Source: Promethearchaeota archaeon
GTDB lineage: Archaea > Asgardarchaeota > Lokiarchaeia > Sigyniarchaeales > SOKP01
Length of the DNA stretch: 33,721 nucleotides
Assembly (NCBI GenBank): GCA_013375475.1
Contig: JABXKD010000038.1
Coordinates: forward strand, 1-33,721
Reading direction: 5' to 3'
Below are positions 26,062 to 33,721 of the stretch, piece after piece (position 1 is the first letter of the stretch; each line of letters begins with the position of its first letter). The notes under the pieces are model-generated. The model was not told the origin of the DNA. It did no database searches and saw only the letters and a list, made by a program, of their open reading frames with translations. Made by a program: the position numbers and the translations under genes.

Positions 26062-27111
26062 TTACTGTTTTTCTAATCTTGATTGTACTACAGACTCTGC
26101 TATATCATAGAAAGCATATTCTACATTTTTTCCCGTCATAGCAGAGGTTTCAATATATTTTAGATTTAATTCCTTAGCTAATGCTAACGCTTCAACTAAT
26201 TTAACTTTTCGCACATCAGTAAGATCTGTTTTATTACCAAAAATATATCCTATCATTTGATGGTGATGTTTATCCATGTTTTTCAACACATCGTCATACC
26301 AATTTTTTATGTTGGTAAAGGAAGTTCTGTTAGTTAAATCAAAAATGAGTAATATAGCCTCTGAACCCTGATAAAAGTGTCTTCTCATTGTTTGGAATTT
26401 ATTTTGCCCTGCAATATCCCACAATATAGTTTCTATTACTTTATTATTAGCTTGAATGATTTTTTCAGTAATGCTGACACCTAATGTGGGAACATATGTC
26501 CTTAGAAATGCGTTATCTGTAAAGCGTAAAATAGTAGAAGTTTTTCCGACTCCAGGATCACCTACCACTACGAGCTTGAATCTATAATCAACGATTTTTT
26601 CGTCTCTTATTATTTTTTCAGGAAATTCTATTGAAGGAGGAAAAGAAATTTCTTTAGCTCTAAAATCGTCTAATAATTGACCTACACTATTTCTTAGGTA
26701 ATTAATTTCTTCAAAAATGGTTTCCTTATCAGCATTCTGTTCTTCTAAATTAATGATTTTTCTTGTTGTCTCGTCAAATGGAGCCTTTAAATAGCTCATA
26801 TATTTATAAAAGACAACATCATCGGCTTCTTTAAACAAAAAAGTGATCGCTGAACGCGCAAATCCTCCTCTCTTGCTTCTATCTTTTCTTTCTATGTACC
26901 TTATTAATCCTTTAAGTTTTAAAGATGGGAAAGGAATTATTAATAAAGAATCTGGCACAGAACCTTGGTCTCCTGTGAGAATCGTAACAGATTTAATAGC
27001 AACAAGCATTCTTATCGATTCGGGCAAATCTGGGGGTGTCCAATGGATTGGGTCTGGACCTAACTCATCGTGAATATCGGTATAAATTACAGCATCAATT
27101 AGTTTCTTCAT
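26062..27111 (-). CDS. Rab-like small GTPase fused to an N-terminal uDENN/longin-like domain
   Basis: G1 GDPGVGKT, G2 YVPTLG, G3 WDIAGQ, G4 NKTD, G5 ETSA; about 170-aa N-terminal extension starting AVIYTDIHDELGPDP. Confidence 0.9.
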   Translation of the reverse strand: MKKLIDAVIYTDIHDELGPDPIHWTPPDLPESIRMLVAIKSVTILTGDQGSVPDSLLIIPFPSLKLKGLIRYIERKDRSKRGGFARSAITFLFKEADDVVFYKYMSYLKAPFDETTRKIINLEEQNADKETIFEEINYLRNSVGQLLDDFRAKEISFPPSIEFPEKIIRDEKIVDYRFKLVVVGDPGVGKTSTILRFTDNAFLRTYVPTLGVSITEKIIQANNKVIETILWDIAGQNKFQTMRRHFYQGSEAILLIFDLTNRTSFTNIKNWYDDVLKNMDKHHHQMIGYIFGNKTDLTDVRKVKLVEALALAKELNLKYIETSAMTGKNVEYAFYDIAESVVQSRLEKQ

Positions 27112-29687: not shown

Positions 29688-30011
29688 ATGAACATGTCAA
29701 CTAACAACGAGAACTATGAACTTGATTATTATCTGAGTATAATTGAATTCTTTCAAAATCAAGACACAAACAGAGAAACAGTAGAGATTTGGAAAAATAA
29801 ATCGTTTATTCAACTAATGAAAGTATTGAAACGAACAGGAAACAAAGAGTTCGTAAAAAATGCCATTATCCTCATACTTTCCCTATTTGATAAAATGCCT
29901 CCAGATTTTTATTCAAGTAGGGGAATTCAAGTAAACTCGTTAACTAATAGCGAGAAGCTTACATATGTTAATCTACTTAAATCAGAAATTGCAAACGATA
30001 TTCCTAACTAA
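29688..30011 (+). CDS. Hypothetical protein
   Basis: 107-aa ORF with upstream TATA-like TTATATAA; alternative ATG at 29694. Confidence 0.7.
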   Translation: MNMSTNNENYELDYYLSIIEFFQNQDTNRETVEIWKNKSFIQLMKVLKRTGNKEFVKNAIILILSLFDKMPPDFYSSRGIQVNSLTNSEKLTYVNLLKSEIANDIPN

Positions 30012-30180: not shown

Positions 30181-33100
30181 ATGAAAAAAGTTCCAAATAA
30201 TGTACTTTTAAAAAAAGCTTCAGCTCTAAGATTGGTAAGTCTTATAATAATATTAACTATATTCCTATCAAGTAGTCTTCTCATTCCAAATTTCAATAAT
30301 ATCACGGGGATAGATAGAAACTATGATAATTTTTCCCAAATACCCTCAATTGCAGATACTGATTCAGTATTATTTGAAGGTAATGAAATATCTTTAAATA
30401 TAACTGACTATGGAAATTTATATGAAACTGATCAGCAGATTGATGTAACTAATCAAGAAACCTTAAATCTTACTTATTACTTAGATAATGTTCATAATTG
30501 GGAAGTCTCAGAAGTTGAAACGCAGATTAACAATATTCAAGATGAGAGAGACTGGGTCGATAATGGGGTTATTGGAAGTGATACAGAACTTACGCCGACT
30601 TCTCAAGTTTCCCAATCTGAAGACTCAGGTCCTAGTTATGGAAAGAATTTAAATCCAAATAATTATTTGGCTACCTTTGACGGTAATGATTGTGATTATA
30701 TGCGAATTCATTTCGTACTCCTTGAAGTTGAATATTATTATGATGAATTATATATTTCTAACCAAGATAATACCGTTTTAGATAATTTTGCCGGATATTA
30801 CACCGATTTCTACACTCCCTGGTATAGTGCAACAGAACTAAAAATTTCCATGGCTTCCGATACTTCAGTAGAACTTTATGGCTATTCTGTAGACTTTTTT
30901 GAAACATATAATGGGAGTATGTTTACTCTTGATAGCACAAGTTGGAATTATTTCGAAGATACTATTAATGATCCATCTCGATTATATGGTGGAACTGCAG
31001 AAATTGGAAATCGATCAGCTCTTAGAACAGTGATTGAGGGGATTGATAATTCTCCTTCCTATTCATATGAAGACGGGGATATCGCCGGTTTCTATCAAGA
31101 CTTTACAATTCCAAGGGGGGAACTTATTGACGCTTGGGTGTCAATGGACTATAATCTTCTCAGAGGGATTACAACAAATGATAATTATGCATATATTAAA
31201 GTAAATGGAGAAACTGTTTACACTCGAGGATTTAGAACTATTACAAACGCTGGATTAGGACAATGGCACAGTACAGGTTTAATAAATTTGGACTTATGGG
31301 AAAATAGTTCGAGTATTTTCGATGAAGTACTCATTGGACAGAGTATCAATTTATCTGTTGGAATCGAGATTGGAAATGGAGTTGAATATACAGGATTCGA
31401 CCATTTAGATATTCAAGAGGCATATTTTGACAATATTCAATTAATCCTCAAAACAAGTGCAAATTCAACACAATCAGGAATAAATCTACAATTTAATAAT
31501 AGCATTTTAAATGATGATAATACTTGGGGTGTTTCTTATTTAAATTTAACAAGTAATTGGAATTCAAATCCGTTAACTTTAACAGTTACTACAAATTCAC
31601 CCTCCTTAACGTTCGATCTTGATACTTCCCTCTATGGGTATCATGAAACCAAATCACGAGTAGGCCAAACTACTTTAGAGGGTGTTTCTTATGAAATATT
31701 AGAAAATGGGACAATAATTTGGACCTTCCTTCATAACTTCTATATGCCATCACAATATTCTGACTTCGAGTTTACAATCTATAAACCCACAAACTGGAAT
31801 TTTATATCAGTTTTAGATTCAACATTACAATCTCGTCCATACGAATACGGCGGAGAGGGAGACTCTATCTTGCAAATAAGTAAAGACAATGCTCTCTTTC
31901 CTGGTTGGTGGACATTTAAGGCAACATCTCCTAATTACTTAAGTCTCACTAATACTAAATTGTCAAATCAAGAACCTTTTACAACAGGTGACTCTACTAG
32001 AATAAAAACGCAAGTAAATAATAGTAATGACATCCCTGGTAATATTGCTTCGACAGAAGTGAATTTGACGATATACGATCCAGAAGGAAATCAGTGGTAT
32101 TCAGAAGTAAATTCACCTCTATCAAATGGAACGGTTTTCTTTTCAGAAATTACTTTTTCTGCTTTAAACACGACCGGAGGTCAATTTGAGTATATATTAT
32201 TCTGGAGTAATGGAACTGCATTAGGTGGGCTTAAATCAAGCTTTATTGTAAATCATCTGAGCCAACTTAAACTGCTAAAACCTAACGACGCAAAAAGTGA
32301 CCTAAGAACTGATGGTTTCGTTGGTGACATAATCCCAGTAAGAGTTTTTCTAACAGACTTTGAAAATAATTTAACAATTTCAGATGCGATTGTTTCTTAT
32401 AATTGGACGGGTGGATCAACTCTTAACTTTACTGAAGCTGCTCTTGGAGTCTATGAGGCTATTCTTTATACTGAAGATTTAGCTTCGAGAGGCTTATACG
32501 AGATAGCAATAAGCTCGTCGAAACTAGGTTTTATTAATAGTAATCTTACGCTTAAAGTAAATTTAGGTGAAGAAACTGGCTTACAAAGGCTTGAATCTGA
32601 ATATAATATAGAGCTACACGCAAATAGTACTATTAAGTTCAAGTTTACCGATTTTAGTGGCGATGGCATTGATGGAGCAATAGTTAACATTAGTATAAGT
32701 AATCCATCGCATTATTCAATTGATAATGTTGGTAATGGGACTTATGATATTGAATTTAGTACGTCTTATATTACTAATATCGGAATATACCAACTGAACT
32801 TTAGCTTTTCGGCGACCGGGTATGAACCTCAGTATTACGTTTACCAATTTCAAATTATAGAACAATCAGTAAATCTTTCGGTTTTTATTAATTCGGTTCA
32901 AATTCAAGATAATTCTCTCCACGAAGTGACGTTTTTTGACATGATTAATGTTTCTGCTAAAGCGATGTCAATTATAGATGAAGAAGATATATCAGGAGGG
33001 AACTTTACTTGGATTAGTGCATCATACAACAAAGATTTGACAGAGCTCGCAAACTTCTGGTATAACACTTCGATTGAATGTCTACCAGGATCTTTTTCAT

Positions 33101-33721
33101 CGGGAATCAATTTTATTTATTTGAAGTTCGAACATTCGAATTATAGAACGCAAACGTTTGGCTTCGAAATCTTGATAGATCGAATTGAGTTTGAAGTCGA
33201 TATAGTTGATCACGAGGACTCAAACCCAACCATAAAAGCGGAAATAGGAGGGTCTTTAGTGCTTCAAATCGAATTGTTAGATATTGAAACTAGTCTCCCT
33301 ATCGAAAATGCATCGGTATTATACGAGTGGACTTATGGAGTTGGTGAATTGGAGGAAATATCTCCAGGTACATATCAACTAACAGTATCTCTCCCCGAAA
33401 ATTTACAGGGCAACTTTATATTCAATTTAATCATCTCAAAAGAGGGAACAGTATATAAAACAACACAAGCTTCATTTCTTTTAGTTATTGGTGAACCTCA
33501 ATTTCCCATATTTATCATATGGATTATTGTCGTAATCTCAGCTGTAATAATTGGTGTTCTAGGCGTACTCAGCTTGAGATCTTATGTAATTTTACCAAGA
33601 AGAAGAAAAAGAGAAGCAGAATTATTATCTCGAACCCAAAGGTTTAAAGATATCGAAAACATTCAAGCAATTGTAGCGATTCATAAAGACAGTGGAATAC
33701 CACTCTATACTAAAAGTTATT
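30181..33721 (+). CDS. Large type I membrane glycoprotein (signal peptide, CUB-like domain, Ig-like repeats, TM helix, cytoplasmic longin-like domain); runs off the window end
   Basis: Translated manually: 1180 stop-free codons from ATG 30181 (AGGGG upstream). MKKVPNN...LVSLIIILTIFLSSSLLIP signal; TM FPIFIIWIIVVISAVIIGVLGVLSL at 33502-33576; then PRRRKR and NIQAIVAIHKDSGIPLYTKSY. Absent from the ORF track because it has no stop in the window. Confidence 0.92.
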   Translation, partial: MKKVPNNVLLKKASALRLVSLIIILTIFLSSSLLIPNFNNITGIDRNYDNFSQIPSIADTDSVLFEGNEISLNITDYGNLYETDQQIDVTNQETLNLTYYLDNVHNWEVSEVETQINNIQDERDWVDNGVIGSDTELTPTSQVSQSEDSGPSYGKNLNPNNYLATFDGNDCDYMRIHFVLLEVEYYYDELYISNQDNTVLDNFAGYYTDFYTPWYSATELKISMASDTSVELYGYSVDFFETYNGSMFTLDSTSWNYFEDTINDPSRLYGGTAEIGNRSALRTVIEGIDNSPSYSYEDGDIAGFYQDFTIPRGELIDAWVSMDYNLLRGITTNDNYAYIKVNGETVYTRGFRTITNAGLGQWHSTGLINLDLWENSSSIFDEVLIGQSINLSVGIEIGNGVEYTGFDHLDIQEAYFDNIQLILKTSANSTQSGINLQFNNSILNDDNTWGVSYLNLTSNWNSNPLTLTVTTNSPSLTFDLDTSLYGYHETKSRVGQTTLEGVSYEILENGTIIWTFLHNFYMPSQYSDFEFTIYKPTNWNFISVLDSTLQSRPYEYGGEGDSILQISKDNALFPGWWTFKATSPNYLSLTNTKLSNQEPFTTGDSTRIKTQVNNSNDIPGNIASTEVNLTIYDPEGNQWYSEVNSPLSNGTVFFSEITFSALNTTGGQFEYILFWSNGTALGGLKSSFIVNHLSQLKLLKPNDAKSDLRTDGFVGDIIPVRVFLTDFENNLTISDAIVSYNWTGGSTLNFTEAALGVYEAILYTEDLASRGLYEIAISSSKLGFINSNLTLKVNLGEETGLQRLESEYNIELHANSTIKFKFTDFSGDGIDGAIVNISISNPSHYSIDNVGNGTYDIEFSTSYITNIGIYQLNFSFSATGYEPQYYVYQFQIIEQSVNLSVFINSVQIQDNSLHEVTFFDMINVSAKAMSIIDEEDISGGNFTWISASYNKDLTELANFWYNTSIECLPGSFSSGINFIYLKFEHSNYRTQTFGFEILIDRIEFEVDIVDHEDSNPTIKAEIGGSLVLQIELLDIETSLPIENASVLYEWTYGVGELEEISPGTYQLTVSLPENLQGNFIFNLIISKEGTVYKTTQASFLLVIGEPQFPIFIIWIIVVISAVIIGVLGVLSLRSYVILPRRRKREAELLSRTQRFKDIENIQAIVAIHKDSGIPLYTKSY

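Follow-up and report, generated by a model that had tools for sequence, protein, structure and literature searches.

A predicted lokiarchaeal surface glycoprotein with a variable head and a longin-family cytoplasmic tail

Longin domains serve eukaryotes in the control of small GTPases. Proteins that contain them are already known from Asgard archaea, and include fusions of the longin domain to Arf-like and Rag-like GTPases (Klinger et al. 2016, via PMC4917890; Liu et al., 10.1101/2020.10.19.343400; Tran et al. 2024, PMC10933270; what is said of cited papers here refers to the portions of their text that were available). The present work concerns a gene at the end of a 33,721 nt contig of a Promethearchaeota archaeon (JABXKD010000038.1), which was analysed as a whole and is referred to as the window (contig C220). 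The gene encodes a putative receptor composed of a large ectodomain, a single transmembrane (TM) helix and a cytoplasmic tail. Its source assembly (G000) comprises 3.92 Mb in 288 contigs, with a completeness of 100% and contamination of 6.41%, and the G+C content of the window is 27–35%. By profile-profile homology the tail appears to belong to the same domain family as the described Asgard longin proteins, and G000 also holds small soluble members that pass the PF19036 cut-off and one fusion of the family to a GTPase. In the available texts, however, the described forms are soluble or fused (to GTPases, TRAPPC3 or two-component domains), whereas here the predicted longin domain lies in the cytoplasmic tail of a single-pass glycoprotein of ~1400 aa, with a further domain of ~80 aa behind it. 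The word ‘transmembrane’ occurs 0 times in the available portion of PMC10933270. No description of a membrane-anchored Asgard longin receptor was found in the literature searched, as far as its text was available, and the same holds for the abundance of this architecture and for the variable head; supplementary tables (the asCOG lists of Liu et al. and the domain tables of Klinger et al. and Tran et al.) may list such proteins.

Several better known systems invite comparison. In Ragulator, roadblock dimers anchored by LAMTOR1 bring Rag GTPases to the lysosome (PMC10933270). Like Ragulator, the receptor would present a membrane-tethered platform of the longin/roadblock type that could position a small GTPase; unlike Ragulator, it carries the TM tether in the same polypeptide together with a huge ectodomain, its core is of longin rather than roadblock type, the membrane would be the plasma membrane and not the lysosome, and no GTPase partner was identified. 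The actinobacterial conservon combines a membrane sensor, a roadblock protein, DUF742 and a GTPase. Another prokaryotic case of GTPase regulation by a roadblock protein is the MglA/MglB pair (PMC10933270). Both exemplify regulation of a Ras-like GTPase by the roadblock superfamily in prokaryotes, in the conservon downstream of a membrane sensor, but they employ separate roadblock-type proteins encoded in one operon, while here ectodomain and longin form one chain and the operon contains no GTPase. Among eukaryotic single-pass receptors, plexins and others carry a cytoplasmic domain that regulates small GTPases, which in plexins is RasGAP-like. The resemblance is one of hypothesised logic only (a recognition ectodomain joined through one TM helix to a cytoplasmic domain that acts directly on a small GTPase); no relationship of sequence or fold links RasGAP-like domains to longins, and the analogy is functional speculation. 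The longin SNAREs VAMP7, Sec22 and Ykt6 consist of a longin domain, a SNARE motif and a C-terminal TM anchor. They too are membrane-anchored proteins whose longin faces the cytoplasm, but their order (longin-SNARE-TM) is the reverse of that seen here (ectodomain-TM-longin), the receptor has no SNARE motif, and a search of G000 for PF13774 gave no match at E ≤ 0.01. Longin SNAREs are mentioned in the available text of PMC4917890.

The receptor frame, 30181..33720 (+), begins with ATG and continues for 1180 aa to the contig end without a stop, in an open reading frame (ORF) listing that allowed open ends. A preliminary description of this DNA had claimed an unbroken frame of at least 1180 aa at 30181-33721, which was borne out. 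Listing programs that ignore open-ended frames would miss it, which probably explains its omission from the ORF track, because the frame runs off the contig. Hydrophobic 19-mers with a Kyte–Doolittle (KD) hydropathy of at least 1.8 occur in just two regions of the protein, residues 12–39 and 1098–1139. The TM helix within the second is preceded by one K or R in 15 residues and followed by six in 15. The ectodomain (residues 37–1105) is rich in N, S and T and contains 30 N-x-S/T sequons; 1000 shuffles gave 18.1 ± 3.7 and at most 31. The 243-aa tail of an orthologue contains 0. Because of this charge asymmetry, and because the ectodomain is rich in sequons and the tail free of them, the ectodomain was placed outside the cell and the tail inside. 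These data support a receptor topology consisting of a signal peptide or N-terminal anchor, ~1070 aa of external ectodomain, one TM helix and an internal tail.

Thus hydropathy, K+R counts and sequons recovered the order that the preliminary description had set out (N-terminal hydrophobic segment, ~1070-aa ectodomain, one TM helix, PRRRKR, linker and hairpin), and architecture and topology support its proposal of a single-pass, receptor- or adhesin-like surface protein, in our reading a glycoprotein on the strength of predicted glycosylation. A Pfam scan of the window protein returned nothing significant (Invasin_D3, at E 0.0029, was below the cut-off), and neither the window protein nor the full tail contained HisKA/HATPase or another transmitter domain by Pfam. 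Neither a profile of the full-length receptor nor one of the tail had a match among PDB sequences, the best hit of the former being a PKD domain near the membrane at E 0.14.

The distal part of the ectodomain varies far more than the rest. At the locus in genome G014, the flanking genes are 94–98% identical to those of the window, but the receptor itself is only 64% identical. In 60-residue bins, identity between these two receptors is 25–42% across residues 121–480 and 83–100% across residues 781–1180. Orthologues P0002, P0003 and P0004 show the converse pattern, with 92–100% identity in the head and 57–95% in the remainder. When 43 full-length orthologues were compared (903 pairs), the stalk was best conserved (median identity 61%), followed by the tail (55%) and the head (44%). 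In the 112 pairs whose stalks are at least 75% identical, heads were less than 45% identical in 71 and at least 75% identical in 6. With single linkage at 60%, the 43 heads fell into 16 classes, but a single class took in 38 of the stalks. Such a pattern is typical of a recognition domain that is exposed and either undergoes exchange or diversifies rapidly. The variability suits a receptor or adhesin, and would fit equally well a protein that serves as a viral target. As an observation in its own right, the head (30541-31620) behaves as an exchangeable allele, decoupled from the conserved stalk and tail.

The missing part of the tail was represented by that of the G014 orthologue (locus L021; 243 aa, L021:1495-2223:-), which differs from the window protein by 1 mismatch across the last ~180 residues. 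In full-length orthologues the tail measures ~240 aa, comprising a longin-family core of ~130 aa and then a domain of ~80 aa with no assigned family. A tblastn search of G000 with the last 90 residues of the window protein found other proteins with a TM helix, basic stretch, linker and hairpin, and the complete ORFs of these paralogues put the tail module at ~215–240 aa. A hidden Markov model (HMM) built from five paralogous tails detected 17 ORFs in G000, and an iterated HMM of the ~120-aa core converged at 36, recruiting 5/5 ORFs of PF19036 type against 1/13 of PF03259 (roadblock) type. PF19036, the first longin domain of FUZ, MON1 and HPS1, has five matches in G000, including one tail-family member (C50).

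To guard against iteration drift, an independent longin profile was built from 28 small (130–160 aa) proteins of the same genus that pass the PF19036 cut-off, with two of the 30 returned loci excluded as falling below it. Matches at this cut-off were present in 24/26 genomes and in 0/14 control genomes. In hhalign, the tail profile (62 rows) aligned to this longin set with Prob 98.0 and E 2.5e-13 over 114 columns (tail residues 31–164), including a common W-x-G-x-x-x-x-F helix; negative controls reached Prob 0.3–0.5%, the GTPase control among them at 0.5. The HMM of five paralogues, in which the L021 tail had no part, matched this tail at E 5.7e-22 (residues 6–242), profiles of orthologue-only and paralogue-only tails aligned with Prob 100 (E 2.7e-38, 220 columns), and the paralogue-only tails aligned to the curated longins with Prob 97.9 (E 4.9e-13). 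Because of the match to PF19036-passing proteins and this closed chain of homology from orthologues through paralogues to longins, we conclude that the tail core is a predicted longin-family domain, assigned by profile-profile homology though below the Pfam threshold for membership. The preliminary description's view of the tail as longin-like therefore held up; the second domain of ~80 aa had not been foreseen.

Weak Pfam matches of tail-family members point the same way, being nearly all of longin type (Fuz_longin_1 at 8.8e-4 and 3.3e-3, Intu_longin_1 at 5.1e-4, Sybindin at 0.008 and Longin at 0.036), with one LAMTOR5 exception. Among the 62 aligned members, Longin was matched weakly in 2 and Intu_longin_1 in 2, and PF13774 was precomputed for 1/105 short relatives. 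A crude analysis of hydrophobic periodicity in the same 62 tails suggested a core order of beta, beta, alpha, beta, (beta), beta, alpha, alpha, with strand 4 uncalled; a juxtamembrane helix comes before this core and three helices come after it. A longin would have beta-beta-alpha-beta-beta-beta-alpha-alpha, ending in two helices and lacking an N-terminal helix inside the domain. A lineage-specific acidic insert, between the first helix and strand 3 (L021 tail residues ~75–87), is variable in orthologue tails and absent from most paralogues (occupancy 10–30%).

The module extends well beyond this receptor. An exhaustive search with the tail profile returned 9855 cluster representatives (no taxonomy attached) at E ≤ 1e-3; of these, 3485 remained at a threshold of 1e-10 and 352 at 1e-30. 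In 139 of the best 150 matches a hydrophobic helix lies immediately upstream of the module, and in 118 the module also starts beyond residue 200; more than 100 aa follow the module in 52. All named relatives come from Asgard metagenome-assembled genomes (MAGs) and all are called ‘hypothetical’, with a precomputed Pfam domain in 0 of the 120 long ones listed. At E ≤ 1e-10 the module was found in 189/201 Asgard-phylum genomes sampled, 85/85 high-quality genomes and 56/59 genera, and genomes of the window's own family usually have at least 13 matches. The survey of Asgard genomes that the preliminary description had suggested thus showed the same tail on different membrane proteins. The 37 members in G000 (window included) comprise 5–6 single-pass proteins with ectodomains, 6 polytopic proteins, 1 fused to a GTPase, 2 in which the module follows TPR arrays and a remainder of small soluble proteins; membrane proteins account for 11–12 of the 37. 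The module is therefore an abundant, phylum-wide and predicted cytoplasmic end-piece of single-pass and polytopic Asgard membrane proteins, and it also occurs in soluble ones.

Some further architectures were noted. The six polytopic proteins of G000 that end in the module (L080, L081, L079, L015, L082 and L008) have 3–7 predicted TM helices and include two tandem pairs; the 7-helix protein has the weak Intu_longin_1 match (E 5.1e-4), and the membrane parts of all six lack a Pfam family. Paralogous receptors of ~750–790 aa with the tail (C236/L002 type) stand in tandem arrays of 3–5, for example at G195:C71, G045:C30, G150:C83 and G113:C13. In two proteins the module is followed by TPR or coiled-coil: L006 (G000:C52:2831-4149 (-)), with weak TPR matches only (best E 0.007), and L004 (G000:C211:23943-25319 (+)), with no TPR match. 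TPR precedes the module in L077 and L078 (TPR_12 E 2.5e-17 and 7e-17). Coordinates of the receptor, its parts and associated features are collected in Table 1.

Table 1. Positions of the receptor gene, its predicted parts and other features; window coordinates unless a contig is given.
Feature	Position	Strand	Remarks
Receptor gene	30181..33720	+	1180 codons, cut by the contig end; full-length orthologues 1381–1398 aa
N-terminal hydrophobic segment, residues 12–39	30214..30297	+	KD ≥ 1.8; putative signal peptide or N-terminal anchor
Distal head, hypervariable, residues ~121–480	30541..31620	+	Identity bins against G014; head classes
Conserved stalk, residues ~481–1105	31621..33495	+	N/S/T-rich and sequon-rich; weak Invasin_D3 and PKD-like hints
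Transmembrane helix, residues 1108–1138	33502..33594	+	Predicted from hydropathy
Basic stop-transfer PRRRKR, residues 1139–1144	33595..33612	+	Marks the cytoplasmic side
Juxtamembrane linker, residues 1145–1160	33613..33660	+	Helical periodicity (crude analysis); conserved in orthologues
First beta-hairpin of the predicted longin-family core, residues 1161–1180	33661..33720	+	~110 aa of core and ~80-aa C-terminal domain lie beyond the contig end
Upstream 107-aa ORF	29688..30011	+	170 nt 5' of the receptor; no Pfam family; syntenic in 4/4 same-genus loci
Polytopic module proteins (G000)	C66:37440-39796, C144:27845-30023, C238:23061-24203, C266:1-1386		G000

At the level of the family, the module can be linked to small GTPases. 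One paralogue, L013 (G000:C199:27670-28641 (-), 324 aa), consists of a longin-family module followed by an Arf/Ras-type GTPase (Arf 1.7e-16). It agrees with the longin-GTPase fusions reported for Lokiarchaea, and longin/roadblock dimers have been described as GTPase platforms (PMC4917890, PMC10933270). Taking the 83 GTPase-like ORFs of G000 alone (a fragmented genome) and stop-to-stop ORFs as background, a GTPase gene lay within 2 kb of 9/36 non-fused module genes compared with 203/2465 background ORFs (~3-fold; Fisher p 0.0024). The figure was 8/34 (p 0.006) when tandem pairs were collapsed, and within 5 kb it was 16/36 compared with 370/2465 (p 2.9e-5). A functional tie between the module family and small GTPases is plausible on these grounds. 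Given one fusion and GTPase neighbours enriched ~3-fold, it is a reasonable but unproven idea that this receptor is coupled to a GTPase through its tail, and we put it forward tentatively and with more doubt than confidence.

The preliminary description had named as partner the N-domain and GTPase encoded at 26062..27111 (-), a Ras-family GTPase (Ras 3.3e-48) with a 170-aa N-extension. This part of the interpretation found no support: the gene lies 3.0 kb away on the other strand, and its N-extension has no Pfam match and is unrelated to the tail family (hhalign 0.3%) and to the roadblock and longin sets. Membership of the N-domain in the tail family, the roadblock family or the longins was accordingly rejected on profile comparisons and Pfam. 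The arrangement of receptor and GTPase locus is kept in 4/4 same-genus loci, as expected from descent. Separately, the N-extension carries an invariant L-G-P-x-P-I-x-W after its first strand in 5/5 orthologues, and the N-domain has three paralogues in G000 (C252, C155 and C62). It contains a GP motif, and may correspond in place to the one ascribed to longins of the GTPase-activating protein (GAP) type (PMC12290439).

Two other GTPase genes deserve mention. A distant paralogous receptor in G010 is followed by a Ras-family GTPase gene 69 nt downstream. In the 412-aa GTPase of G010:C98 (L066:615-1850 (-)), the C-terminal ~165 aa (residues ~183–350) recur at 46–66% identity in 60/61 genomes of the family; this domain occurs in several hundred open frames of 160–1600 aa, is highly conserved and widely shuffled, and has no Pfam name. 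Contig G014:C70 also encodes a 470-aa protein (L059:25-1437 (+)), ~6.5 kb downstream of its receptor gene; this protein has a weak Folliculin-type match (E 0.0017–0.003, residues 79–140) followed by a Gtr1/RagA-Arf-type GTPase (1e-24). None of the other three loci showed this longin-Rag-like fusion at the corresponding position.

Taken by itself, the structural part of our interpretation, a type I surface glycoprotein in which a hypervariable head and a conserved stalk are joined through one TM helix to a tail with a longin-family core, is very probably correct as a prediction. In the mechanism that we propose, the head would recognise something outside the cell, for example a second cell, a surface or a virus. 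The longin module, tethered to the membrane, would offer a docking or regulatory surface for a small GTPase, acting like a guanine nucleotide exchange factor (GEF), a GAP or a scaffold, as longin/roadblock platforms do elsewhere; alternatively, the docked partner might be a longin/roadblock protein supplied in trans. The effect would be to localise GTPase activity to the place where surface contact occurs. Structure and longin-GTPase mechanism taken together make a possible account, whose prospects we place slightly short of even.

A number of observations weigh against a longin tail acting through a GTPase. The longin fold of the tail was assigned entirely from sequence profiles. Orthologue-only tails (Neff 2.6) gave a modest alignment to the longin set (Prob 58.1, 42 columns; 6.5 against roadblock). 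The Pfam longin models miss the receptor tail: no longin family was found in the L021 tail at E ≤ 1, and a PF19036 search of G014 with a limit of E ≤ 10 found nothing in the tail of its receptor (G014:C70). The GP motif at the start of strand 2, which defines GAP-type longins (FLCN, NPRL2 and SMCR8-C9orf72; PMC12290439, as far as its text was available), is absent, the orthologues having S-G-I-P and the family as a whole conserving only the G (G34, nearly invariant). As for the GTPase, the neighbour enrichment comes from one fragmented genome with a crude background and non-independent paralogues. The nearest GTPase gene, 26062..27111 (-), is 3013 nt from the receptor, on the opposite strand, behind the Ogg and PfkB genes and not operonic, and the gene downstream of the orthologues encodes a CxxCxxCC protein and no GTPase. 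A conserved receptor-GTPase operon was rejected, a tail-family gene being present in the 1.5-kb flanks of 0/6 other full-length orthologues of the G010 GTPase. Finally, GTPase genes of MK-D1 generally lie outside operons with longin genes (Tran et al., PMC10933270).

Among the alternatives, the one that survives best holds that the protein is a structural envelope or adhesion protein of Lokiarchaea without an S-layer, in which the longin tail only dimerises, sorts or anchors (to cytoskeleton, ESCRT or a longin/roadblock protein) and no GTPase signalling takes place. The large, predicted glycosylated ectodomain with its variable head, the multi-copy family with tandem arrays of ~750–790-aa paralogues and the lack of an operonic GTPase are all in keeping with it. 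‘Ca. L. ossiferum’ has many surface proteins and no ordered S-layer (PMC9834061), and certain longin domains have roles unrelated to GTPases (PMC10933270). We nevertheless consider this alternative unlikely, as the module is fused to an Arf-like GTPase and enriched near GTPase genes, and it also ends polytopic proteins that have no large ectodomain, for which a signalling or adaptor role is a better fit.

An improbable alternative is that the tail core is a Roadblock/LC7 domain of MglB type, with the juxtamembrane helix as its N-terminal helix, acting as a GAP or GEF as MglB does. Longin and roadblock folds share a core (PMC10933270), one paralogue has a weak LAMTOR5 match (E 0.046), and a profile of 11 G000 roadblock proteins did align with the tail profile (Prob 54.7, E 1.2e-4), the 79 aligned columns taking in the linker helix, hairpin and first helix. 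For this control profile 2 of 13 over-threshold ORFs were excluded (the 345-aa C222 protein, and C277, which iteration had recruited), which may lower its score somewhat. In every comparison, however, roadblock scored below longin: 54.7 against 98.0 for the full tail profile, 37.2 against 97.9 for paralogue-only tails and 6.5 against 58.1 for orthologue-only tails. PF03259 has 17 matches in G000 (13 over the cut-off), of which 0 fall at tail-family members, and the soluble relatives begin at strand 1 and finish with two helices, which is the longin arrangement.

Still less probable is a membrane-tethered regulator, in which the ~80-aa domain is a DNA-binding winged helix that acts once the tail is released, or in which a longin/GAF-like core binds a small ligand. 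The idea draws on a soluble paralogue, L010, whose C-terminal region matches MarR_2 (3.8e-5), HTH_47 and TrmB, and on the periodicity analysis, which suggests three helices in the final 60 residues of the tail. Yet 59 tail C-domains aligned to 10 C-termini of L010 type with an hhalign Prob of just 0.2 (the template was shallow, Neff 1.5), Pfam found no helix-turn-helix (HTH) family in the L021 tail, and no protease site or partner is evident. A winged-helix identity for the last ~80 aa is unsupported by either hhalign or Pfam HTH models.

That the frame is nonfunctional (a chance frame, pseudogene or assembly artefact) has next to no probability and is effectively refuted already: it is truncated and its 3' end was found nowhere in G000, but intact full-length orthologues exist, synteny is conserved in 4/4 same-genus loci examined, 130 homologues were found at E ≤ 1e-3, and public contigs carry on beyond the break, so that the truncation is a contig end only. 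Many of the 130 proteins matched at E = 0, with identities of 43–86% among the best 120; in this set the full-length orthologues come from MAGs labelled Lokiarchaeota/Promethearchaeota and in some cases Thor-, Heimdall-, Hod- or Hermodarchaeota, each bearing the name ‘hypothetical protein’. An end of the frame shortly beyond the window, which the preliminary description had held would tell against its reading, is not what was found. Orthologue tails reach ~200 aa past the final residue, and a 3078 nt contig from a public run (X1), whose first 2200 bases cover 31522-33721, extends 878 nt further; a second (X2) extends 304 nt past the window end. Within G000 itself, no contig end overlaps that of the window, and a tblastn search with the tail of orthologue P0002 returned only the window's own 42 residues and paralogues. 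Frames open at the edges of contigs C52 and C266 were rejected as the missing 3' end, being different paralogues.

With regard to expression, a 151 nt contig from an RNA library is identical to 32577-32727 and a second matches in part, which is too little to claim that the receptor is expressed, as such libraries can contain DNA. The upstream 107-aa ORF may be co-transcribed with the receptor. At the orthologue loci, a gene for a CxxCxxCC protein (PF03692, 1.4e-13; L059:7270-7887 (-)) follows ~40 nt 3' of the receptor on the same strand in 4/4 same-genus loci.

Asgard genomes encode expanded sets of small GTPases and of longin/roadblock proteins. Operons do not pair GTPases with longins, hence partners are hard to predict (Tran et al., PMC10933270). 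The many longin-family domains that appear hard-wired to the inner end of surface and polytopic membrane proteins would provide an entry point, in that the membrane protein locates the longin and the tail can serve as bait. A hypervariable head fits recognition at the surface of contact-dependent organisms that lack an S-layer. More broadly, the module might mark a phylum-wide class of Asgard receptors, both single-pass with diversifying heads and polytopic with up to 7 TM helices, whose longin output recruits or regulates small GTPases; such a signalling route would be pre-eukaryotic and different from two-component systems, and could direct the remodelling of cytoskeleton or membrane where cells touch in syntrophic partnerships, though in this full form we think the proposal unlikely. 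If the coupling is false, the module family would still be a large unannotated class of Asgard envelope proteins; if it is true, the logic that runs from receptor to small GTPase would be older than eukaryotes.

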